Source: Candidatus Gastranaerophilales bacterium
Lineage (GTDB): Bacteria > Cyanobacteriota > Vampirovibrionia > Gastranaerophilales > JAILCC01
Direction of reading: 5' to 3'
Assembly (NCBI GenBank): GCA_028696075.1
Contig: JAQVHS010000001.1
Coordinates: forward strand, 194,408-258,407
Length of the DNA: 64,000 bases
Shown piece by piece: positions 3,341-43,269 of the stretch. The notes below the pieces were generated by a model. The model ran no database searches and had not been told where the DNA came from. It saw nothing but the letters and a program-made list of their open reading frames with translations. The position numbers and the translations under genes are program-made. The first letter of the stretch is position 1. Each line of letters opens with the position of its first letter.

Positions 3341-3853
3341 TTACACTCCGCAGCCGCAGCAATGGCTGTTGTCGAAGGTGTCTTTATTCTTTATACAGGT
3401 GTTGCACTTCTCCTGCATTTTGCCCTCATTGACAAAATATTGAAAGCTCTTAATCCACTTAGGTTCTTTGCACGTGCAAGTCTGCATAAAAGTAAGAAAT
3501 TCAACAAACCTTTTTAAAACATCTTCCGTCATGGAAAATTCTATATTATTAGCAGAGGTTTCAATTTCTTCAGGCTTCATCATAAGCACCGTTTCTAAAA
3601 ATGTACGGATAGTTTGATGCCTGTTTATCTTTTCTTCGACAATTTTTTGCCCCTTGGACGTCATTGTAATTAAACCGTAAGGTTCGTATTTAAGGTAGCC
3701 TTTTTTTGCAAGTGCCTTAACGGCCTCTGAAGTTGAGGATGCGCCCACCTGCATTTTTGCCGCTACGTCTTTTACTCTCGCTGCGGAATTTTTTTGCACC
3801 AATTCATAAACAGTGTGCAAATATTTCTCAAGACTTTGGGTAAGTTCTTTCAT
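3341..3853 (-). CDS. DtxR/MntR-family metal-dependent transcriptional repressor with Cys-rich C-terminal tail
   Basis: N-terminal winged-helix and dimerisation region typical of DtxR/MntR (LEKYLHTVYELV..ARVKDVAAKMQV..SSTSEAVKALAKKGYL..YEPYG.ITMTSKG). The tail carries CTC...CNTC...HCCGCG. Confidence 0.8.
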   Translation of the reverse strand: MKELTQSLEKYLHTVYELVQKNSAARVKDVAAKMQVGASSTSEAVKALAKKGYLKYEPYGLITMTSKGQKIVEEKINRHQTIRTFLETVLMMKPEEIETSANNIEFSMTEDVLKRFVEFLTFMQTCTCKEPKWIKSFQYFVNEGKMQEKCNTCIKNKDTFDNSHCCGCGV

Positions 3854-3905: not shown

Positions 3906-5507
3906 TTATTTTTTGAAATAAACGGGCATATACTTGTTTATATCCAATGGAACTGCTTGAGGCGGTTTGGTTTTTGTTTGATTTTTTTTGGTCATTGCAA
4001 TGTTTAGCTTTGGCAATATAATTCCAAGCATCAAAAGCGAATATGCAAGCCCTGAAATATGCGCTATGTTTAATTTTCTGATATTTTCTTTCACGAGCTT
4101 ACCGCCTTGAGCCGTTATTTCCGCATGGGTTTTCAGGGAAATATTTTTCAACCAGTGCGAGATACCTTTTCCCGGTTTTGAGATATTGAACAGATTTTCT
4201 TTTTTAGGGTCTAAAATTTGGGCAACACCTTTTGCCACAAAACCGCCTAAAACAAGCCAGTTAAGAAATCCCATATAATCTCTGAATACAGTTTCTCTTA
4301 ACTCTGTCTTGTCTTTTGATGCCAAAATCCTGCCCAAAACAAGCGCTCCAAAGACAACTTTGATAGCATGCCCGCTTGTTGCAGGTCCGGTAAGTTCTAA
4401 ACGCTTCACCAAATCTTTTAAACTGTTAATGTTCATCACCTTCACAAGCATTAAAATAAATCCGCTGCCTGCAAGAAGTTTATAAAGGTTTAAGTTCTTT
4501 TTCTTGTCTTCTCTCTTGTTTTGGGTGTTTAAGTCCGAAAGATAATCCATATTCCCTACAAATGCCGCAGTGCCTGTGCGTTTTTTTGTAATATATCGGT
4601 TTAACGCCTGATTTGTAAGTGCAAGCCCGATAGATAATGAAATTGCACCAAAGGTTTTGATACTGTTTAGCGCTTTTAATTTTTTGAGTATTGTTTCCGT
4701 ATCGGAAGAGTTGAATATATTTTGCCCTGCATCTATGGTATCTCTAAGAACGTTATGTATAGTACTTGTAACAGATTTCCCGCCGTTTTTAACGGTTATG
4801 TTATTTTCTGACAAAGTTGCATTAATTATTCTGTGGGTTATGATTTCCAGCAGGTTTTTTGAGTCATTCCCGCTGACGGTTTTGTCCGTTATTAACCTTG
4901 TTAATCCTTCTGATATACTTTGATGTGATTTGAGTGAGGTATGAATATTTTCAAATTCTTTATTACCCCATTTGAATTTTTGCCAGGCATCTTTGTCATA
5001 CCACCGGATTTTGTCCCAGTTAATTTCATTCCAGTTTATATTTTTATCCTTGCTAAAGCCTGATAAAGATGATAAAAGGTTCTCTACATAGCCTTTTGCT
5101 GTCTTATTTGAAGTGTTCCAAACATTATTTAATACATCAAGAATATTGTTGGATGCCCAGGAATTGTTATTTACTTTTACTTTTGGCTGTACAAATTTGG
5201 ACGCTGCTTTATTTATCAATTGCCCGAATAACCCGGCGGAAAAGCAGGCTATAAAAGTTCCCGTAAATTCCCTAAATGCCATCTCTGCAGCTGCATATTT
5301 GTTTCTTTCTCTATACTCTACAATAGGTCTTGGTATATCCATTGCAAACACATCAATCACAGAAGCGTTAATCATTGGTTTTGTATCAAGAATTGCCAGT
5401 CCTTTTGTTAATGTAGTGTCCAACACCCCTCTAAAATTGGGTTTTGAATAATTATTTTCTGCCTTCACTTTTATCATTTCTAACGTTCCTTTACTAAAAT
5501 TCTTCAC
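3906..5507 (-). CDS. hypothetical polytopic membrane protein
   Basis: 533-codon ORF from GTG 5507; an alternative ATG at 5477 is preceded by AAGGA. At least six hydrophobic segments. No family recognised. Lies 52 nt upstream of the DtxR-like gene on the same strand. Confidence 0.55.
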   Translation of the reverse strand: MKNFSKGTLEMIKVKAENNYSKPNFRGVLDTTLTKGLAILDTKPMINASVIDVFAMDIPRPIVEYRERNKYAAAEMAFREFTGTFIACFSAGLFGQLINKAASKFVQPKVKVNNNSWASNNILDVLNNVWNTSNKTAKGYVENLLSSLSGFSKDKNINWNEINWDKIRWYDKDAWQKFKWGNKEFENIHTSLKSHQSISEGLTRLITDKTVSGNDSKNLLEIITHRIINATLSENNITVKNGGKSVTSTIHNVLRDTIDAGQNIFNSSDTETILKKLKALNSIKTFGAISLSIGLALTNQALNRYITKKRTGTAAFVGNMDYLSDLNTQNKREDKKKNLNLYKLLAGSGFILMLVKVMNINSLKDLVKRLELTGPATSGHAIKVVFGALVLGRILASKDKTELRETVFRDYMGFLNWLVLGGFVAKGVAQILDPKKENLFNISKPGKGISHWLKNISLKTHAEITAQGGKLVKENIRKLNIAHISGLAYSLLMLGIILPKLNIAMTKKNQTKTKPPQAVPLDINKYMPVYFKK

Positions 5508-5761
5508 AAAAAAAAGTCCTTAAAATTTATTAAGGACCCTTTTCAATATCGAAAAATCTTTGCAGCGTTGACTAAGTCCTTAATTTCAAGAACTGACAAC
5601 AACAATACATATTTTGATTTAATTTTACATTCATGCTCATAACATATTATATTAAATAAAAAAATAAAATGTCAATACTCTAATCTTGTAAAAATTTAGT
5701 GTTTGTAGTATGTTATGGTATGGCATAAAAAATAAGGAAAGCAAAAAATCAAGGTTCTTCT

Positions 5762-6400
5762 ATGAAAAAAATACTATGCTATGGAGATTCAAATACATAC
5801 GGCTATAACCCCGAAAACTCGGGCAGATACAACAAAACAACCCGCTGGACAGCTTTGCTTGTGAAGTTGCTTGGCAATGACTATGAAATTATTGAAGAAG
5901 GCTGTAATAACAGGACAGGATTTGCCTATAACCCTTGCGGATTTATCCAAAACGGTCAAAAGTATTTACCTGTTTGCCTGAGAGAATATTCGGATATTGA
6001 TATTGCAATATTAGCGCTTGGAACAAACGATTTACAGACATCTTTTCATATAGATTGGGAGATTGTTGAAAAAGGGTTGCTGACTCTTATTGCAACGGTT
6101 AAAAAATTCCACCCCGGTGCAAGAATTATTATTGTGCCGCCTGTAATTTTAAGCGAAGATATCTTGAACGGTGCTTTTGCCCACCAGTTTGACCGAAATT
6201 CAATTGATAAATCAAAACAAATAGGTCAGATATATAAGCAAATTGCACAAGCAAGCCATTGTGAAATTATAGACTTTAATGAATTTGTATCGCCGTCAGA
6301 ACAAGACGGGCTGCATTATTGTGCGCAAGCTCATGCAATCATAGCTGAAAAACTGACAGATTTTATTGAGGAGGGAACTTTTAATGAAAATAACCGTTAA
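5762..6400 (+). CDS. SGNH/GDSL-family hydrolase
   Basis: Block I CYGDSNTYGY, block III GTNDL and block V DGLHY (catalytic Ser/Asp/His signature). Confidence 0.85.
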   Translation: MKKILCYGDSNTYGYNPENSGRYNKTTRWTALLVKLLGNDYEIIEEGCNNRTGFAYNPCGFIQNGQKYLPVCLREYSDIDIAILALGTNDLQTSFHIDWEIVEKGLLTLIATVKKFHPGARIIIVPPVILSEDILNGAFAHQFDRNSIDKSKQIGQIYKQIAQASHCEIIDFNEFVSPSEQDGLHYCAQAHAIIAEKLTDFIEEGTFNENNR

Positions 6401-6584
6401 CGGCAAAGAAGTAGAATTATATAACTCTGATACAATAGCGGATTTTATTGTAGAGAGAAAAATTGCAGGCACAATGTTTGTGATTGAAAAGAATTTAAAA
6501 ATTATTAACAAAGAAGACTATGCCTCAGAACCGCTTCAAGAAAGCGACACTATAGAGTTAGTCGGTTTTACCGGAGGGGGTTAA
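6384..6584 (+). CDS. thiS: ThiS/MoaD-family sulfur-carrier protein (C-terminus ...VGFTGGG-stop)
   Basis: 66 aa starting MKITVNGK from ATG 6384, with GAGGAGGG RBS at 6368-6375. Ends in Gly-Gly-Gly directly before the stop. Overlaps the SGNH gene by 17 nt. The track ORF begins further upstream at 6366. Confidence 0.8.
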   Translation: MKITVNGKEVELYNSDTIADFIVERKIAGTMFVIEKNLKIINKEDYASEPLQESDTIELVGFTGGG

Positions 6585-7685
6585 GTGAAAGTACTTGTCG
6601 GTATGTCAGGCGGTGTTGATTCATCAACAACAGCAATATTACTGAAGGAACAAGGACACCGGGTCATTGGAGCAACAATGGCTATTTGGGGTAAGGGCGG
6701 TATTTATAAGCAAATTCAGGAGGAGCTGGATAAACTGCCGAAAAAAGCTCATGGAGCTTGTCTTGGACCTGATGAGAAAGAAGATATTGAAGCCGCAAAA
6801 AAAATTTGTGAACAGATAGGTATAGAATTTCACGTTTTTGATTGTGCAAAGCAATATCAGGAAATTGTGCTTGAAAATTTTAAAAAAGAATATTTGCACG
6901 GAAGAACCCCGAACCCTTGCATTTGGTGTAACGCACTTATCAAGTTTGATGTTTTACCCCGCCTTGCAAAACTTAACGGTATTGAATTTGATAAATTCGC
7001 TACAGGACACTATGCAAGAATTGAACAGGGCAACAACGGGCAACTCCTTTTAAAAAGAGGAATAAACCCTAAAAAAGACCAGTCGTATTTCTTGCACAGA
7101 TTAAATCAGGAACAGTTGAAAAATATTCTTTTACCGTTAGGCGGATTTGAAAAATCCGAAATAAGAGAAATTGCAAAATCCCAAGAGTTGAGCGTTGCGG
7201 ATAAACCCGACAGTCAGGATTTTTATGAGGGCGATTATAACCGGCTTTTGCAGGTCGAAAACAAAACAGGAAATATTACGGATACAAAAGGCAATATTTT
7301 AGGAACCCATAACGGAATATGGAATTTCACAATCGGACAGAGAAAAGGGCTTGGTATCAGCTCTACGGAAGCGCTTTATGTAATTGAGCTTAAAAAAGAT
7401 ACAAATGAAGTTGTCGTCGGTTTTAAAGACAAAACCATGAACGACAAACTTATTGCTGTCAAAATGAATTGGATAGGGTATGATAAACCTGAGAAGGAAC
7501 TTCGATGTTTCGCAAAAATCCGCTCCACTCAGGAACCGGCAGAAGTAACGGTGACTCCTTTGGCAAATGATGATATAGAAGTTACATTTACAAATATGCA
7601 AAATTCCATTGCTCCCGGGCAAGCCGTCGTGTTATATGAAGGCGATACAGTCTTAGGCGGCGGAATTATTGATAAAGTCTTATAG
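6585..7685 (+). CDS. mnmA: MnmA-like tRNA 2-thiouridylase (PP-loop ATPase), atypical active site
   Basis: GTG start directly after the thiS stop, with GGAGGGGG upstream. PP-loop SGGVDSS; motifs RTPNPCIWCNALIKF, ATGHYAR, KDQSYFL and TIGQRKGLGI. At the DS(Q/T)xICF motif the sequence reads DSQDFYEG, so Tyr replaces Cys. Confidence 0.8.
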   Translation: MKVLVGMSGGVDSSTTAILLKEQGHRVIGATMAIWGKGGIYKQIQEELDKLPKKAHGACLGPDEKEDIEAAKKICEQIGIEFHVFDCAKQYQEIVLENFKKEYLHGRTPNPCIWCNALIKFDVLPRLAKLNGIEFDKFATGHYARIEQGNNGQLLLKRGINPKKDQSYFLHRLNQEQLKNILLPLGGFEKSEIREIAKSQELSVADKPDSQDFYEGDYNRLLQVENKTGNITDTKGNILGTHNGIWNFTIGQRKGLGISSTEALYVIELKKDTNEVVVGFKDKTMNDKLIAVKMNWIGYDKPEKELRCFAKIRSTQEPAEVTVTPLANDDIEVTFTNMQNSIAPGQAVVLYEGDTVLGGGIIDKVL

Positions 7686-7704: not shown

Positions 7705-8427
7705 TTGATAAGATATGACAGAAATATATTAATCAATGAAATAGGCGCAGAGGGTCAAACAAAACTCCTGAGTGCAAAAGTTTTAATCTGCGGTGCAGGC
7801 GGGTTGGGGTCAACTGTTATTGCAAACCTTGCCGCTGCAGGAGTCGGCACTATCGGGATTGTAGACAATGATATTCTTGAGCTGTCTAATTTAAACAGAC
7901 AATATATTCATAAATTTGCAAATATCGGACAGGCAAAAATAAACTCTGCCAAAAACTGGATACAAGAATTTAACCCCGATATTAACATCAAGACTTATAA
8001 TGTAAGGCTCGATGAAAATAATTATCAATCAATTGCCGGCGAATATGATTTAATCATAGATTGTTTTGATAGTTTTGAATCAAAATTTTTACTAAATAAC
8101 ATTGCACTAAAGATGAATAAATCTTTAATAGCAGGCGGGGTAACGGAATTCAGGGGTCAGGTAACTACTGTTTTGCCCCATAAAAGTGCGTGTTTGAGAT
8201 GCCTGCTGCCTGATGCGGACCCGGAGGCTTATGTTGTAAAAGGAGTTATAAGCCCTACGGTATCTATGATAGCCTCTGTTGAATCTATGGAAGCTGTTAA
8301 ACTTATTCTCGGAACAGGTGAGCTTTTGACCAATCAATTGCTTGTCTTTGACGGATTACAAATGAACTTTAAAAAACTAAAATTTGAAAGAAATAAAAAC
8401 TGCAAATGGTGCAAAGATTATGAATAA
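7705..8427 (+). CDS. ThiF/MoeB/HesA-family E1-like adenylyltransferase
   Basis: TTG start with AAGGGAA upstream. RYDRNILINEIGAEGQTKL..VLICGAGGLGS nucleotide-binding fold. Two CxxC pairs (CLRC, CKWC). No rhodanese domain. Confidence 0.85.
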   Translation: MIRYDRNILINEIGAEGQTKLLSAKVLICGAGGLGSTVIANLAAAGVGTIGIVDNDILELSNLNRQYIHKFANIGQAKINSAKNWIQEFNPDINIKTYNVRLDENNYQSIAGEYDLIIDCFDSFESKFLLNNIALKMNKSLIAGGVTEFRGQVTTVLPHKSACLRCLLPDADPEAYVVKGVISPTVSMIASVESMEAVKLILGTGELLTNQLLVFDGLQMNFKKLKFERNKNCKWCKDYE

Positions 8428-9346
8428 GGAAGAATTATTAAAATTATATGACTTGGAGTTGGAGGAATTGGTTAAAATATCCTCGGCAATTACCAAAGAG
8501 CATTTTAAAAATACTGTAGAAGCCTGCTCTATTATCAGCGCAAAAACAGGTGAATGCCAAGAAAACTGCAAATACTGTTCCCAAAGCGCCCACAACGAAG
8601 CAAAGATTGAATGCCATCCTTTGCTTGAAGTTGAAAAAGTAAAACAGGCAGCGCTTGCGGCAAAAGAAAACGGCGCTACGAGATTTTGTATTGTAACATC
8701 AGGCAGAACCGTTGAAACCAAAGACTTTGGCAAAGTTTTAGACATGATAAAGGCAGTTGCATCAGTTGACGGAATACACTGCTGCGCTTCTTTGGGGCTT
8801 CTTGAAGAAGAGCAGATAAAACAAATTAAACAGGCAGGAGTAAAAAGATTTAACCACAATATCAATACATCAGAAAATTATCACAAAGAAATCTGTACCA
8901 CTCATAATTTTCAAGACAGAATAAATACAATCAAAACTTTGCAAAAATACGGGATAGAAGCCTGTACAGGCGTGATTTTGGGAATGGGTGAAACAAGGGA
9001 AGACAGGGTGGAGATGGCATTGTCTTTGGCTGAATTAAACCCTAAAACAGTTCCTGTCAATATTTTAAACCCCATCAAGGGTACCAAACTGGAGAATTAT
9101 TATGATAAAATTTCCGAAGAAGAAGTTCTAAGGACAATATGTATTTTCAGAATAGCAATGCCAAAAACAATACTAAGGTACGCAGGCGGCAGAAGTACAA
9201 GGTTTTCGCAAGAATATCAGTATTTAGGCATGCAAGCGGGAATTAACGGCATTCTTGTAGGGAATTACCTTACAACGAACGGAGTTGAAAAGGAAAACGA
9301 CCTGAAAATGCTTCATGATTTAGATTTACAATTAACCAAAGCTTAA
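8420..9346 (+). CDS. bioB: biotin synthase (radical SAM)
   Basis: ATG 8420 overlaps the upstream stop by 8 nt. CQENCKYCSQS radical-SAM motif, GATRFCIVTSGR, CCASLG, FNHNINTSENYH..TTHNFQDRINT and EACTGVILGMGE match BioB cluster ligand positions. Confidence 0.85.
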   Translation: MNKEELLKLYDLELEELVKISSAITKEHFKNTVEACSIISAKTGECQENCKYCSQSAHNEAKIECHPLLEVEKVKQAALAAKENGATRFCIVTSGRTVETKDFGKVLDMIKAVASVDGIHCCASLGLLEEEQIKQIKQAGVKRFNHNINTSENYHKEICTTHNFQDRINTIKTLQKYGIEACTGVILGMGETREDRVEMALSLAELNPKTVPVNILNPIKGTKLENYYDKISEEEVLRTICIFRIAMPKTILRYAGGRSTRFSQEYQYLGMQAGINGILVGNYLTTNGVEKENDLKMLHDLDLQLTKA

Positions 9347-26901: not shown

Positions 26902-28176
26902 CTAAATTTGTGATTTTTCCAAGGCTTGATTAATATCTTCAATAATATCTTCTATATCCTCAATGCCAATACTTAACCTGATAAAATCTTCACTCAAGCC
27001 GGCAGCTTCCTGCTCTTGGGGGTTAAGCTGCTGATGGGTAGTGCTTGCGGGGTGAATGACCAAGGATTTGGCATCACCAATATTAGCTATGTGGGACAAG
27101 AGTTTTACGCTATCTATAAATTTTACTCCCGCTTCTTTGCCTCCTTTTATGCCAAAAGCCACTATTCCGCTTTGACCGCTGGGAAGGTATTTTTGAGCAA
27201 GGGTATAATTTTCGTCATCTTTTAGCCCGGGATAAATTACCCAGCCCACACCCGGATGTAATTTTAAAAACTCTGCAACTTTAAGGGCATTTTCGCTGTG
27301 TTTTTTCATACGCAGACTTAAAGTTTCTATTCCCTGTAATATTAAAAACGCGTTAAAAGGACTAAGCGCAGCTCCCGTATCACGAAGGATTTTAACCCTC
27401 ATTTTGGCTATAAAGGCGCAGTTGCCAAAAGCTTCCGTATAGCTTAAGCCGTGGTAACTCGGGTCTTTGTCTGTAAGGGTAGAGAATTTGCCTGATTTTG
27501 TCCAATCAAACTTACCGCTGTCTACCACTATTCCGCACATACTGGTGCCATGCCCGCCTAAATATTTGGTAGCAGAGTGAATTACAATATCTGCACCAAA
27601 ATCAACAGGTTTAAGCAAACTCGGGGTTGAAACCGTTGAATCAATGACAAGCGGAATATTATGTTTGTGTGCAATTTCGGCTAATCCTTCTATATCAGCA
27701 ACGGTTAAACGGGGATTAGCGATGGTTTCCGCAAAAATAAGTTTTGTCTTGGGAGTAATTGCTTTTTCAAACTCCAATGGGTCTGCGCTTTTAACAAAGT
27801 GTGTTTTTATCCCTAAATTAGGCAGGGTATTTTGAAACAGCGTATGAGTTCCGCCGTAAATAGAGCTTGAAGAAACAATCTCATCGCCTTGCATAGCAAT
27901 ATTTAAAATTGTATAAAAAATCGCAGACATACCTGAAGATACCGCCAAAGCAGCTGCGCCATGTTCAAGCATTGCAAGGCGTTTTTCCAAAACATCGGTA
28001 GTAGGATTCATAAGCCTTGTATAAATATTACCCGCCTGAGTGAGATTAAACAGATTTTTCGCATGTTCGGAGCTGTCAAAAGCAAATGCCGTTGTTTGAT
28101 AAATCGGTAACGCTCTTGAATTCGTAGCTTTATCAGGTTCCTGTGCGCCATGAATTTCTATAGTGCTGTCTTTCAT
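26902..28176 (-). CDS. metY: O-acetylhomoserine sulfhydrylase
   Basis: ATG 28176 preceded by AAGGAGAAAAATT. The track ORF extends to 28248 but would overlap the upstream gene by 61 nt. [14 protein letters not shown]-lysine motif. Cys/Met-metabolism PLP fold over the full length. Confidence 0.9.
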
Positions 28177-28187
28177 AATTTTTCTCC

Positions 28188-28385
28188 TTAACCGCCGCCA
28201 AAAAATCCGACAATTTCTATGCCGTCGTTTTCCTGTAATATCGTGCAATAATTTTCTTTGTAAATGATTTCCTTGTTTTTTTCCACTACAAACATTTTGG
28301 ACTTTACATTTGCAAATTCTATTAAATCCAAAATAGTAGCGTTTTCTTTAATATTAATATTTTTACCGTTTAAGATTACATTCAT
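28188..28385 (-). CDS. ThiS/MoaD-family sulfur-carrier protein, second copy (C-terminus ...VGFFGGG-stop)
   Basis: 65 aa, [10 protein letters not shown]... Paralog of 6384-6584 (shared F[VI][VI]EKN..II.KE.Y....LQE.D.IE[LI]VGF.GGG). Stop lies 9 nt before the metY start. Start overlaps the upstream PHP gene by 23 nt. Confidence 0.75.
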
Positions 28386-29037
28386 TTTCGCTTATTTCGC
28401 CTTTTTTTATTATAGCTTCCACGCTGTGAGAATCACTTCCGCCTGTTTGCAATAAATTCAGCTCTTGTGCGATTTTTTCGACATCAGAAGCTTCATAAAA
28501 TTTTATTATACTCCTGTGCCTGCGATAAGCATAATTTGTTTCCAATCCGTCAAGCCCGTACGTTATTAATTTTTTTACGGTGTTTTTCAAATTTAAGCTC
28601 CAGCAGCATGCAGGATGAGCCAAAACCGCTATACCGCCTGCAGCCTTAATTGCCTTTATAACAGCTTTTGCGCTCCTGTAATTGATTAATCTTATAATAT
28701 CGTTTGTGGCACAAAGCTTGTTTTTTGCATAAAGCTTGATTAATTCAGGATGATTTACATCAATCCCGTAACCTAAAATATGCATGTATACATATCCGTG
28801 CCAGCAGTCAAATTCAACGCTTTTAATAATTTGAATTTCATCATCACTTTGCACCTGATTATGGGCGGCAACAACATTGTGATCTGTTATAGCAATAATT
28901 TTAAACCCTTTTTCCTTGCAGGCATCAGCGACTTGCTGCGGAGTGTTTTCACCGTCGGAACAGTCGGTGTGAATATGCAAATCCACCGTATTAAAAAAAT
29001 CCTCTTTTTTTATATTTGCTAAAAAGTCTTTCATCAC
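28363..29037 (-). CDS. PHP-domain metal-dependent hydrolase
   Basis: VDLHIHTDCSDGENTP N-terminal PHP motif, ITDHN, AHP and GGSDSH metal-ligand motifs. 224 aa. Confidence 0.75.
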   Translation of the reverse strand: MMKDFLANIKKEDFFNTVDLHIHTDCSDGENTPQQVADACKEKGFKIIAITDHNVVAAHNQVQSDDEIQIIKSVEFDCWHGYVYMHILGYGIDVNHPELIKLYAKNKLCATNDIIRLINYRSAKAVIKAIKAAGGIAVLAHPACCWSLNLKNTVKKLITYGLDGLETNYAYRRHRSIIKFYEASDVEKIAQELNLLQTGGSDSHSVEAIIKKGEISENECNLKR

Positions 29038-42129: not shown

Positions 42130-43269
42130 CTATTTACGTGCTTTTTTTCCGGTTTCTCTTTCTTTTTCCAAGGTGCGTTTCACATTATCCAAAGAGATTT
42201 TCAACAACATTTTTCTGTTTTTGCCGTCAAAAAACACAAACCATAACTTTTGTTTGGGGTTTTCAATATTAAAAGAAATTTTTCCTGCCATGCGTGAATT
42301 AGGCGATAATTTTTTAAACCACAAATCCGTATCGCTAAACGGAGAAGCATGAAAAACAGCCTTCGTGTCATTCATCAAAGCCATATCAAATGTAGACAGC
42401 TGCCTGTCTGTTTTATTAACTATACTAAGTGTCAGTGTAATAGTATTCGGTTCACCGAAGGGGTCTTTTTCATAAGTAATATTTGTAATTCGTACATCTA
42501 AATTCTCATTAAAAAATTCATTATCCAAAAGCGCTGATTCTTTCATGACCCTTAATTTTGTTTTTTCGGTAAGTTTAACATTAATCTCATCACCTTGTGC
42601 AAGCAACACCTCATTGCCTTTTTTGCTCATAGCAACGGCAAGTCCGACAGCACCGCCCACACCTGCTCCGCCGATAACCGTATAGCCCTGACTTGCTACA
42701 GCCGCAGGAAGTCCGAACATTTGCAATGCCAGTAATCCGCCCAACGCGCCTCCGCCTAGAGTATAGCCGGCATGAGTAGCCGTAACCTTAGCCGCATTGG
42801 CAACAGGATTTCTTTTAGTGGTCATTCTAGCTTCTATCGGAATTTCTCTGCCGTCAGGAGTTACAATATAGTCAAAATTAAGCGTCACATTGGCATCACG
42901 GCTAAAACGCTTGGAATTCACAATCTCGATAATTGTGCCGTGGGCAACGCTTCCTGCCGGAACTACAACCCCGTCCTCGGTTTTGATTTCATTTGTAATC
43001 TGGGCAAAAAATTCATCGCCTCTGACGTTATTTTCGGTATTAATAATGTTGGCGACAACCATTTTAACCACTGTTCCTTTGTCTAAAACCGTGGTTTTAT
43101 CGGTTAAAATCTCACTGTCTTCTTTAAACTCATCGTTAATTTGAGCATAACCGCGAAAAACATAGCCATTTTCACCCATTTTAGGGGCTTCCGCACTATA
43201 AGACACAGTACCTGCAAAAAGGCTTATAACAAGAGCTGCTGCCGCTAATATATTTAAAGGCTTTCTCAT
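42130..43269 (-). CDS. secreted hypothetical protein with glycine-zipper segment
   Basis: Signal peptide MRKPLNILAAAALVISLFAGTVSYSA. Central GGGALGGLLALQMFGLPAAV..GGAGVGGAVGLAVA. Beta-rich C-terminal domain. No family assigned. Confidence 0.55.
   Translation of the reverse strand: MRKPLNILAAAALVISLFAGTVSYSAEAPKMGENGYVFRGYAQINDEFKEDSEILTDKTTVLDKGTVVKMVVANIINTENNVRGDEFFAQITNEIKTEDGVVVPAGSVAHGTIIEIVNSKRFSRDANVTLNFDYIVTPDGREIPIEARMTTKRNPVANAAKVTATHAGYTLGGGALGGLLALQMFGLPAAVASQGYTVIGGAGVGGAVGLAVAMSKKGNEVLLAQGDEINVKLTEKTKLRVMKESALLDNEFFNENLDVRITNITYEKDPFGEPNTITLTLSIVNKTDRQLSTFDMALMNDTKAVFHASPFSDTDLWFKKLSPNSRMAGKISFNIENPKQKLWFVFFDGKNRKMLLKISLDNVKRTLEKERETGKKARK

Follow-up and report, generated by a model that had tools for sequence, protein, structure and literature searches.

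How does an MnmA enzyme pass sulfur to the wobble uridine of tRNA when it lacks the cysteine on which both accounts of its chemistry depend? The question is raised by an open reading frame (ORF) at positions 6585-7685 (+ strand) of a 64,000-nucleotide (nt) stretch of a Candidatus Gastranaerophilales bacterium genome (contig JAQVHS010000001.1, positions 194,408 to 258,407), hereafter called the window. The ORF encodes a homologue of the PP-loop tRNA 2-thiouridylase MnmA without an equivalent of Escherichia coli Cys199, and it lies between a gene for a ThiS-like sulfur carrier and one for a ThiF-like activating enzyme. The mechanism of MnmA is disputed between a persulfide formed on Cys199 and a [4Fe-4S] cluster ligated by Cys199, and both proposals treat this residue as indispensable (PMC7025502, PMC11784392, PMC8053098, PMC13066941). 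Published MnmA proteins are of D-type (C-DxxC-C), C-type (CC-CxxC-C) or C-type without the CC region, and the loop cysteine is present in all of them (PMC7025502, PMC11784392, PMC8053098, PMC13066941); the enzymes of E. coli and Thermus both lose activity when it is mutated (PMC7025502, PMC11784392). We describe below a subclass of MnmA, here termed deletion type (C-CxxC-delta), in which this cysteine has been deleted, and a conserved gene cassette that offers a candidate sulfur donor for it.

A deletion-type MnmA without the loop cysteine

The product of ORF 6585-7685 scores above the cutoffs of both the NCBIfam MnmA equivalog NF001138 (391.9 bits; cutoff 284) and TIGR00420 (347.4 bits; cutoff 236.95), and the Pfam families PF03054, PF20259 and PF20258, representing the PP-loop HUP domain, the PRC barrel and the C-terminal beta-barrel, are all matched at full length. 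An AlphaFold2 (AF2) model computed from an input of 48 homologues has a mean predicted local distance difference test (pLDDT) score of 95.3, and Foldseek comparison of this model with the MnmA crystal structures 2hma, 2det and 2der returned template modelling (TM) scores of 0.86-0.90. The first-pass annotation, made from the sequence alone, had described an MnmA homologue along the whole length with a retained CxxC pair. This agrees with the profile, domain and fold results, and every motif that it quoted is present in the translation, including the ATP pyrophosphatase motif SGGVDSS at amino acids (aa) 8-14 (6606-6626, +), CIWC with Cys112 and Cys115 (6918-6929, +), KDQSYFL at aa 164-170 and TIGQRKGLGI at aa 249-258. 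The CIWC pair is equivalent to Asp99/Cys102 of E. coli and Cys105/Cys108 of Thermus thermophilus MnmA. We conclude that the ORF encodes a full-length MnmA homologue by both sequence and fold. Judging by its sequence, it is probably an isofunctional tRNA U34 2-thiouridylase; with every tRNA-binding domain and motif retained, the different substrate also suggested in the first-pass annotation is unlikely.

The window protein has no residue opposite E. coli Cys199 in HMMER alignments to 2der, 2hma, 9hln and 9hlv, and again in three independent MAFFT alignments. The loop concerned, KPDSQDFYEGDY (aa 207-218; 7203-7238, +), aligns as DSQD--FYE-GDY with DSQDICFVPDGDY, placing Phe213 opposite the phenylalanine that follows the catalytic cysteine and Tyr214 opposite the next residue. 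What had been read as a Cys-to-Tyr substitution is therefore a deletion, in which an Ile-Cys dipeptide is missing between Asp212 and Phe213, the site of Cys199 in E. coli and Cys200 in T. thermophilus, together with one further residue. The cysteines of the window MnmA are at positions 59, 75, 87, 112, 115 and 318, so that residues 116-317 contain none and the cysteine nearest to the loop is at least about 95 residues away. For this reason the loss does not depend on the alignment used, and no nearby cysteine can be moved into the catalytic column. Of the 120 nearest homologues in the database (67-100% identity), all but one share the loop DSQ[DN]FY (119/120). The homologue sample, composed of the 150 best 50%-identity cluster representatives out of 1.84 billion proteins, divides into 77 sequences that lack the IC dipeptide and 73 that have it. 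Since the deletion is shared this widely, it is neither an assembly artefact nor a chance event.

Searching one genome per GTDB species, we found the deletion type in 21 of the best 80 loci among the matches listed. The hosts at these loci are Melainabacteria, gut metagenome-assembled genomes (MAGs) labelled Alphaproteobacteria, Dehalococcoidia, Kiritimatiellia, Treponema, Cloacimonadota, Verrucomicrobiota, Desulfobacterales and other members of the 'Deltaproteobacteria'. Alignment of 95 deletion-type with 130 canonical sequences showed that the Cys199 column holds cysteine in 0/95 and 130/130, respectively, whereas PP-loop Asp12 is invariant and the Cys112/Cys115 pair is 100% conserved in both groups. 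A second position changes along with the loop. The motif HGACLG (aa 56-61; 6750-6767, +) contains Cys59, the first cysteine of the CC motif, and Leu60 at the position of the second cysteine of canonical C-type enzymes; this second cysteine is present in 97/130 canonical sequences and in none of the 95 deletion-type sequences, which have Tyr, Phe or Leu instead. The deletion is thus perfectly coupled to a change from CC to C(Y/F/L). Cys59 itself is found in 94/94 true deletion-type sequences and in 100/130 on the canonical, C-type side, and the subclass keeps exactly three invariant cysteines, Cys59, Cys112 and Cys115. One apparent Cys59-less member, P0225, was rejected as a misaligned canonical protein, and a search for a compensating cysteine unique to the subclass returned none besides the already-present Cys59.

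In a neighbour-joining tree computed without the motif columns, 84 of the 95 deletion-type sequences group in a single clade, free of canonical sequences, within the CxxC (C-type) radiation, and the subclass is accordingly near-monophyletic as well as multi-phylum. Genuine departures from the Cys59 pattern were also seen. The MnmA proteins of loci L129 (P0426; 4016-5011) and L155 (P0427; 4660-5649) have no 28-residue insertion bearing Cys59, and both carry a cysteine directly after the loop phenylalanine (DSQDFC). By sequence, this looks like compensation that keeps the number of cysteines at three. P0492, encoded on a 1.5-kb contig, is an exception to the pattern and lacks both Cys59 and the loop cysteine.

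The existence of a deletion-type MnmA subclass is, in our judgement, near certain. Because it has no loop cysteine, the window MnmA is of neither the D-type nor the C-type mechanistic class. It shares its fold, three domains, PP-loop and CxxC with the [4Fe-4S]-dependent C-type MnmA of T. thermophilus (CC-CxxC-C; PMC7025502), and C-type proteins are the nearest canonical relatives of the deletion type on the tree; a cluster with three ligands is conceivable in the deletion type as well. In contrast to C-type enzymes, however, it lacks the third cluster ligand (T. thermophilus Cys200) and the second cysteine of the CC motif (Cys59-Leu60). Identity to the D-type proteins of E. coli and Bacillus subtilis (C-DxxC-C), in which a persulfide is relayed to Cys199 from IscS through Tus or from YrvO, is 36-37%. 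The single cysteine before the helix (E. coli Cys49, equivalent to Cys59) is shared with these proteins, but the window MnmA has CxxC (Cys112) rather than DxxC and no Cys199. No description of an MnmA without Cys199, or of MnmA in Melainabacteria, was found in the searchable part of the literature. NCBI names these proteins plain MnmA, and transfer of the residue annotation 'cysteine persulfide intermediate' to them would be wrong. A natural clade from which Cys199 has been deleted and in which the other hallmarks are kept amounts to a ready-made experiment that constrains the general mechanism of MnmA, whichever way it turns out.

The thiS-mnmA-thiF cassette and desulfurase linkage

The deletion-type mnmA of the window is the second gene of a compact cluster on the + strand. 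It is preceded by thiS (6384-6584), encoding a 66-aa ubiquitin-like sulfur carrier with the C-terminus VGFTGGG, which is matched by Pfam ThiS and by TIGR01683 (55.5 bits; cutoff 37.45). Reading of the junction sequence showed that thiS ends immediately before the GTG start codon of mnmA, and GGAGGGGG, coding for the glycine tail of ThiS, doubles as the ribosome-binding site of mnmA. Downstream lies a gene for a ThiF/MoeB-type adenylyltransferase (7705-8427, +) resembling the ubiquitin-activating (E1) enzymes. Its 240-aa product matches Pfam ThiF at full length (251.5 bits) and falls below the NCBIfam equivalog cutoffs for ThiF (TIGR02356, 214.1 against 275.25 bits) and for MoeB (NF004281, 234 against 266 bits, and all other MoeB cutoffs). 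This ThiF has a Zn site of two CxxC pairs, and an alignment of ThiF proteins in which invariant cysteines were scored showed no loop cysteine; a rhodanese domain is likewise missing. The fourth cassette gene, bioB (biotin synthase; 8420-9346, +; TIGR00433, 383.8 bits, cutoff 225), shares its first 8 nt with the end of thiF. The last co-directional gene is cysK (cysteine synthase A; 9359-10294, +; TIGR01139, 457.6 bits, cutoff 350.95), which occupies this position in the window only and is missing from the other cassette loci.

This arrangement recurs in diverged lineages. Three ThiF orthologues were looked up in their gene context, and in two cases mnmA was directly upstream of thiF. A metagenome scan with the ThiF alignment, counting loci at ThiF identities of at least 55%, gave 36 evaluable loci; a deletion-type mnmA lies directly upstream of thiF in 17 of these, mostly overlapping it by 14-50 nt. 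At <90% MnmA identity the 17 loci represent 10 lineages, with identities down to about 50%. The most divergent cassette MnmA led to three further loci (L155-L157), each with the order thiS-mnmA-thiF-bioB, which is common to them, L129 and the window. In total, at least 13 lineages, diverged from one another and mostly Gastranaerophilales-like, have the cassette. A ThiS ending in VGF[FTV]GGG precedes mnmA wherever the available sequence suffices, with the exception of one lineage (L094/L114); orthologous ThiS was identified upstream of mnmA in L095, L097, L098, L100, L106, L108, L112, L113, L129 and L155-L157. The cassette was found in 0/59 canonical MnmA loci.

Among the neighbours of this ThiF clade MnmA is by far the commonest. 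BioB and MetY are the other recurrent sulfur-related neighbours, and the remaining genes vary. MnmA is constant in the cassette loci, whereas CysK and MetY are absent from most of them, and those of L094, L095, L097, L100 and L113 contain no BioB, CysK or MetY. On the MnmA tree the cassette is found in the basal L129, in all of one clade, and in the window sequence, which is nested among gut lineages with rearranged gene order; because of this distribution, the simplest reading is that the cassette is ancestral and has been broken up repeatedly. We conclude that a conserved, translationally coupled thiS-mnmA-thiF cassette in Gastranaerophilales-like lineages is well supported. In genomes that lack ThiG, clustering of MnmA, BioB, ThiS and ThiF with Thi4 as a group of sulfur genes has been noted previously (PMC13325395). 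The complete cassette of L156 (Ga0466704_088407; MnmA P0431 and probably ThiF P0392) carries the NCBI label 'Heliobacteriaceae bacterium'; either the cassette extends outside Melainabacteria or this MAG is misclassified.

The genes that supply persulfide to canonical enzymes are, in turn, rarely found beside the deletion type. A class-V aminotransferase of the cysteine desulfurase family (Pfam) lies within 3.5 kb of mnmA in 27/59 canonical loci compared with 1/23 deletion-type loci (Fisher p = 2e-4, with counts that are not phylogenetically independent). Alongside the desulfurase, canonical loci of several phyla contain NifU (18/59) and an Rrf2 regulator (15/59). The deletion-type subclass has therefore lost the desulfurase gene linkage typical of canonical C-type MnmA: where iscS or nifS, nifU and the Rrf2 gene often accompany the latter, the window gene sits between thiS and thiF. 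Neither a cysteine desulfurase nor NifU was found in the 64-kb window or at any ThiF locus. Among the canonical loci L025-L088, a CC-CxxC-C mnmA is often preceded by the series Rrf2 regulator, cysteine desulfurase and NifU; the desulfurase-linked loci of this set belong to Bacillota, Anaerolineae, Desulfuromonadota, Cloacimonadota, Ignavibacteria and Actinomycetota, and several canonical mnmA genes in it adjoin cysK. A 'ThiF' beside the canonical MnmA of L052 was considered as a ThiS-activating E1 and rejected, as it is TcdA-like, has no Zn-site cysteines and is followed by an Rrf2 regulator.

Candidate sulfur donors of the deletion-type enzyme

We propose that deletion-type MnmA is a third class of the enzyme without a persulfide-accepting cysteine, fed in this lineage by a ThiS thiocarboxylate in the manner of TtuA and TtuB. 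By our estimate this proposal has an even chance of being right. The PP-loop would adenylate C2 of U34 as in all MnmA proteins. No persulfide would pass from a desulfurase or the Tus relay to a loop cysteine, and sulfur would instead arrive as a nucleophile, here a thiocarboxylate formed by ThiF at the C-terminus of ThiS, both of them co-transcribed with mnmA, much as TtuB and TtuC supply TtuA and as Urm1 and Uba4 supply Ncs6. This nucleophile could attack the adenylate directly, or else the unligated iron of a [4Fe-4S] cluster with Cys59, Cys112 and Cys115 as ligands. Thiocarboxylate donors are combined with a three-cysteine [4Fe-4S] cluster in TtuA/TtuB and Ncs6/Urm1 (PMC7025502, PMC13066941). 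A three-ligand site is favoured here because exactly three cysteines are invariant and the Cys59-less variants carry a loop cysteine that may compensate. The secondary structure of the AF2 model contains two isolated three-residue strands, 58-60 and 212-214, and as a conjecture from the model these might pair and bring Cys59 beside the deletion site. For the sulfuration of ThiS-adenylate (ThiS-AMP) itself, free sulfide would be the simplest guess, since ThiF has neither a rhodanese domain nor a loop cysteine. The single ThiF probably also charges a second ThiS, located beside metY in the window, and BioB and CysK may be supplied by it as well. Members of the subclass in other phyla may depend on free sulfide or on a carrier encoded elsewhere.

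The first-pass annotation had argued from the flanking ThiS and ThiF genes to a different sulfur donor such as a protein thiocarboxylate. Look-ups centred on MnmA, covering four close homologues and 80 genome loci, had made the adjacency seem a coincidence, a reading that was dropped in view of the ThiF-centred loci. The association itself stands, being recurrent and confined to the deletion type; the thiocarboxylate donor is a plausible candidate and now has a firmer basis. The further idea that the cysteine-less subfamily might always occur together with ThiS and ThiF fails, as most of the subfamily has neither within 6 kb. Several observations weigh against our proposal. Searches with tblastn and hidden Markov models (HMMs) detected ThiS or a MoeB-type ThiF within 6 kb at 0/88 MnmA-centred loci among the matches listed, a set into which the cassette-bearing species did not fall, and the deletion-type MnmA genes in it from outside Melainabacteria-like lineages (Dehalococcoidia, Kiritimatiellia, Desulfobacterales, Treponema, Cloacimonadota, Verrucomicrobiota and gut 'Alphaproteobacteria') have no ThiS/ThiF within that distance. 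Close relatives of the window MnmA (69-77% identity) are encoded after flagellar rod genes, beside radA/cinA or beside an AsnC regulator, and mnmA-bioB is kept without thiS/thiF in L009 (5026-8158), L011 (6001-8000) and L158 (5001-7101); linkage in cis to ThiS/ThiF can thus be dispensed with. MetY and BioB are further neighbours of the ThiF clade, joined in the window by CysK, and the second ThiS of the window adjoins MetY, so ThiS and ThiF may serve other sulfur consumers. Deletion-type and canonical MnmA are both represented in the phyla Chloroflexota, Verrucomicrobiota, Cloacimonadota and Desulfobacterota. T. thermophilus possesses TtuB and TtuC, yet its MnmA takes its sulfur from desulfurases and can do without Cys55, which corresponds to Cys59 (PMC7025502). 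Finally, three conserved cysteines suffice for a sulfide-binding cluster, and a protein donor is therefore not strictly required.

The last of these points leads to the main rival explanation, in which deletion-type MnmA is a [4Fe-4S] enzyme (Cys59, Cys112 and Cys115) that binds free hydrosulfide on the fourth iron, a mode of action proposed for NcsA of Methanococcus maripaludis and for MnmA when assayed in vitro with sulfide. Sulfide-rich anoxic habitats would make both the persulfide relay and an acceptor cysteine unnecessary, and ThiS and ThiF would serve BioB, CysK, MetY or general sulfur assimilation, with mnmA merely co-regulated. The three remaining invariant cysteines and the compensating loop cysteine of Cys59-less variants fit this explanation, as does the presence of the subclass, unaccompanied by desulfurase or ThiS/ThiF genes, in anaerobe-dominated lineages of several phyla. 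It is also consistent with the adjacency of the ThiF clade to MetY and BioB, with the mnmA-bioB pairs of L009, L011 and L158, and with the finding that sulfide supports holo-MnmA and NcsA in vitro (PMC8053098, PMC10067955). It does not, however, explain why mnmA is the commonest ThiF neighbour, or why thiS and thiF enclose it, with overlapping reading frames, in no fewer than 13 diverged lineages; many cassette loci, moreover, lack BioB, CysK and MetY altogether. We consider direct use of sulfide possible rather than probable. Classical chemistry could alternatively be retained if Cys59 had replaced Cys199 as acceptor of a persulfide from an unlinked desulfurase. Cys59 is more constant in the subclass (94/94) than in canonical C-type proteins (100/130), the two short strands of the AF2 model could be partners, and the L129-type variants carry a loop cysteine in place of Cys59. 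Against such a relocation, E. coli MnmA has the same cysteine (Cys49) and its C199A mutant is nevertheless inactive (PMC11784392), the equivalent Cys55 of T. thermophilus can be dispensed with (PMC7025502), and desulfurase gene linkage has been lost in the subclass; we regard it as unlikely.

Still less likely is that the deletion-type protein is an accessory paralogue. A canonical mnmA elsewhere in the genome would then make 2-thiouridine 34 (s2U34), the deletion-type protein would have another target, either a different tRNA position or a different RNA, or be a non-catalytic tRNA binder, and the adjacency of ThiS/ThiF would reflect thiamine or other metabolism. Clostridia are known to carry two mnmA paralogues, and the phyla named above that contain both MnmA types are compatible with such a division of labour. 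No second MnmA was found in the about 150 loci examined or in the window, however, and the protein passes the equivalog cutoff with strong conservation of its three domains and of the tRNA-contact motifs KDQSYFL and GQRKGLG and the C-terminal barrel. Its broad divergence in Gastranaerophilales (50-77% identity within one clade) resembles that of a vertically inherited housekeeping gene, and neither thiamine genes nor a thiamine pyrophosphate (TPP) riboswitch is present.

The proposed thiocarboxylate route resembles several known systems. TtuA-TtuB-TtuC, which forms 2-thioribothymidine 54 (s2T54) in Thermus, and Ncs6/Ctu1-Urm1-Uba4, which forms eukaryotic s2U34, likewise combine a PP-loop thiouridylase with a GG-terminated carrier and an E1 that is possibly shared. 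The window protein is not a member of the TtuA/Ncs6 family, to which Foldseek TM scores are 0.24-0.35 and the likeness is confined to the PP-loop core. The archaeal proteins NcsA and ThiI of Methanococcus maripaludis (PMC10067955) also act as thiouridylases of an anaerobe without a persulfide relay, with a three-cysteine [4Fe-4S] cluster and sulfide as donor; they belong to another protein family, whereas the window system has a co-transcribed carrier and E1. As a concrete donor that can be tested, the thiS-mnmA-thiF cassette would, if the proposal is correct, extend ubiquitin-like carriers to bacterial anticodon thiolation. In its furthest form, which we put forward tentatively and think rather doubtful, the cassette would be the first bacterial wobble-uridine thiolation system based on a ubiquitin-like thiocarboxylate, an MnmA-based, convergent counterpart of Urm1-Uba4-Ncs6 and a third mechanistic class, in which the ThiS thiocarboxylate also reloads the auxiliary cluster of an anaerobe-type BioB.

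Other sulfur genes and neighbouring features of the window

A role of ThiS/ThiF in thiamine or molybdenum cofactor synthesis was rejected, as there are no ThiG/H/C/D/E or Moa genes and no TPP riboswitch. ThiG, ThiH, ThiO and Moa proteins were found neither in the 64-kb window nor among the recurrent neighbours of 44 ThiF loci, and no TPP, S-adenosylmethionine or other riboswitch was detected in the window or in eight cassette loci. Across the 64-kb window, no other genes for thiamine, molybdopterin, Fe-S assembly or cysteine desulfuration were found. MnmA was also considered as a ThiI-like sulfurtransferase for ThiS-AMP; this was rejected because the protein has no rhodanese domain and no cysteine to carry a persulfide, one of which would be required.

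The window encodes a second ThiS-like carrier on the - strand (28188-28385; 65 aa, C-terminus GFFGGG, Pfam ThiS), with 43% identity to the first by tblastn. Downstream of it lies metY (O-acetylhomoserine sulfhydrylase; 26902-28248, -; TIGR01326, 653.4 bits, cutoff 495.1). The two ThiS paralogues are thus each placed beside a different sulfur consumer, and MetY adjoins ThiF or ThiS-ThiF in L119, L137 and L139. TtuC serves TtuB, ThiS and MoaD in Thermus. By analogy, the single window ThiF probably charges at least two carriers, each beside a different sulfur-consuming enzyme. The association of a carrier and E1 with cysteine synthase and O-acetylhomoserine sulfhydrylase is a known theme, represented by CysO/CysM and HcyS/MetY (PMC1779556), and from its sequence the pair formed by the second ThiS and MetY is a predicted HcyS/MetY-like thiocarboxylate route to homocysteine. 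As in CysO-MoeZ-CysM and HcyS-HcyF-MetY (PMC1779556), a ThiS-like carrier and an E1 are accompanied in the window by pyridoxal phosphate-dependent sulfhydrylases (CysK, and MetY beside the second ThiS). The likeness concerns ThiS and ThiF, not MnmA. No rhodanese domain or JAMM/MPN peptidase was detected in the window system, the latter giving no Pfam match among the scanned window ORFs of at least 110 aa. The second ThiS-like ORF overlaps the end of a PHP-domain ORF (28363-29037, -), a hydrolase that might fill the role of the JAMM peptidase.

The cassette BioB has its best PDB match in the type II ([4Fe-5S]) biotin synthase 8vdw (265 bits, compared with 194 bits for E. coli 1r30). It has cysteine at both positions that are swapped between the types (VEAC, equivalent to Ec Ser43/Bo Cys52, and TRFC, equivalent to Ec Cys97/Bo Ser106), and its assignment as a clear type II enzyme was not retained. 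The donor of the fifth sulfide of type II BioB is unknown, and genome-neighbourhood searches for it have failed (PMC10813225). The gene order thiS-mnmA-thiF-bioB, shared by the window with L129 and L155-L157, offers a possible answer, and the cassette bioB is in this sense a lead on the sulfur supplier of anaerobic biotin synthases (PMC10813225). In L009, deletion-type mnmA is preceded by nadA, which encodes another three-cysteine [4Fe-4S] enzyme.

Upstream of the cluster, a GDSL-family hydrolase ORF (5762-6400, +) overlaps the start of thiS and has no obvious tie to sulfur chemistry. The best candidate promoter of the + strand (5624-5653) precedes this ORF, so the operon may begin with it. 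Further upstream are an MntR/DtxR-like regulator (3341-3853, -) with an unusual cysteine-rich C-terminal tail (…CNTCIKNKDTFDNSHCCGCGV) and an adjoining 533-aa ORF without a Pfam match (3906-5507, -); the same pair of neighbours is found upstream of mnmA in L158. Two other ORFs of the window, encoding 350 aa (11427-12479, -) and 379 aa (42130-43269, -), belong to no Pfam family, and a tRNA-His (GTG) gene lies at 12886-12961 (-). Downstream, the [FeFe]-hydrogenase maturase gene hydE (10291-11343, -; TIGR03956, 381 bits) converges on cysK, and HydE-like genes are also located near ThiF in L112, L117 and L128.

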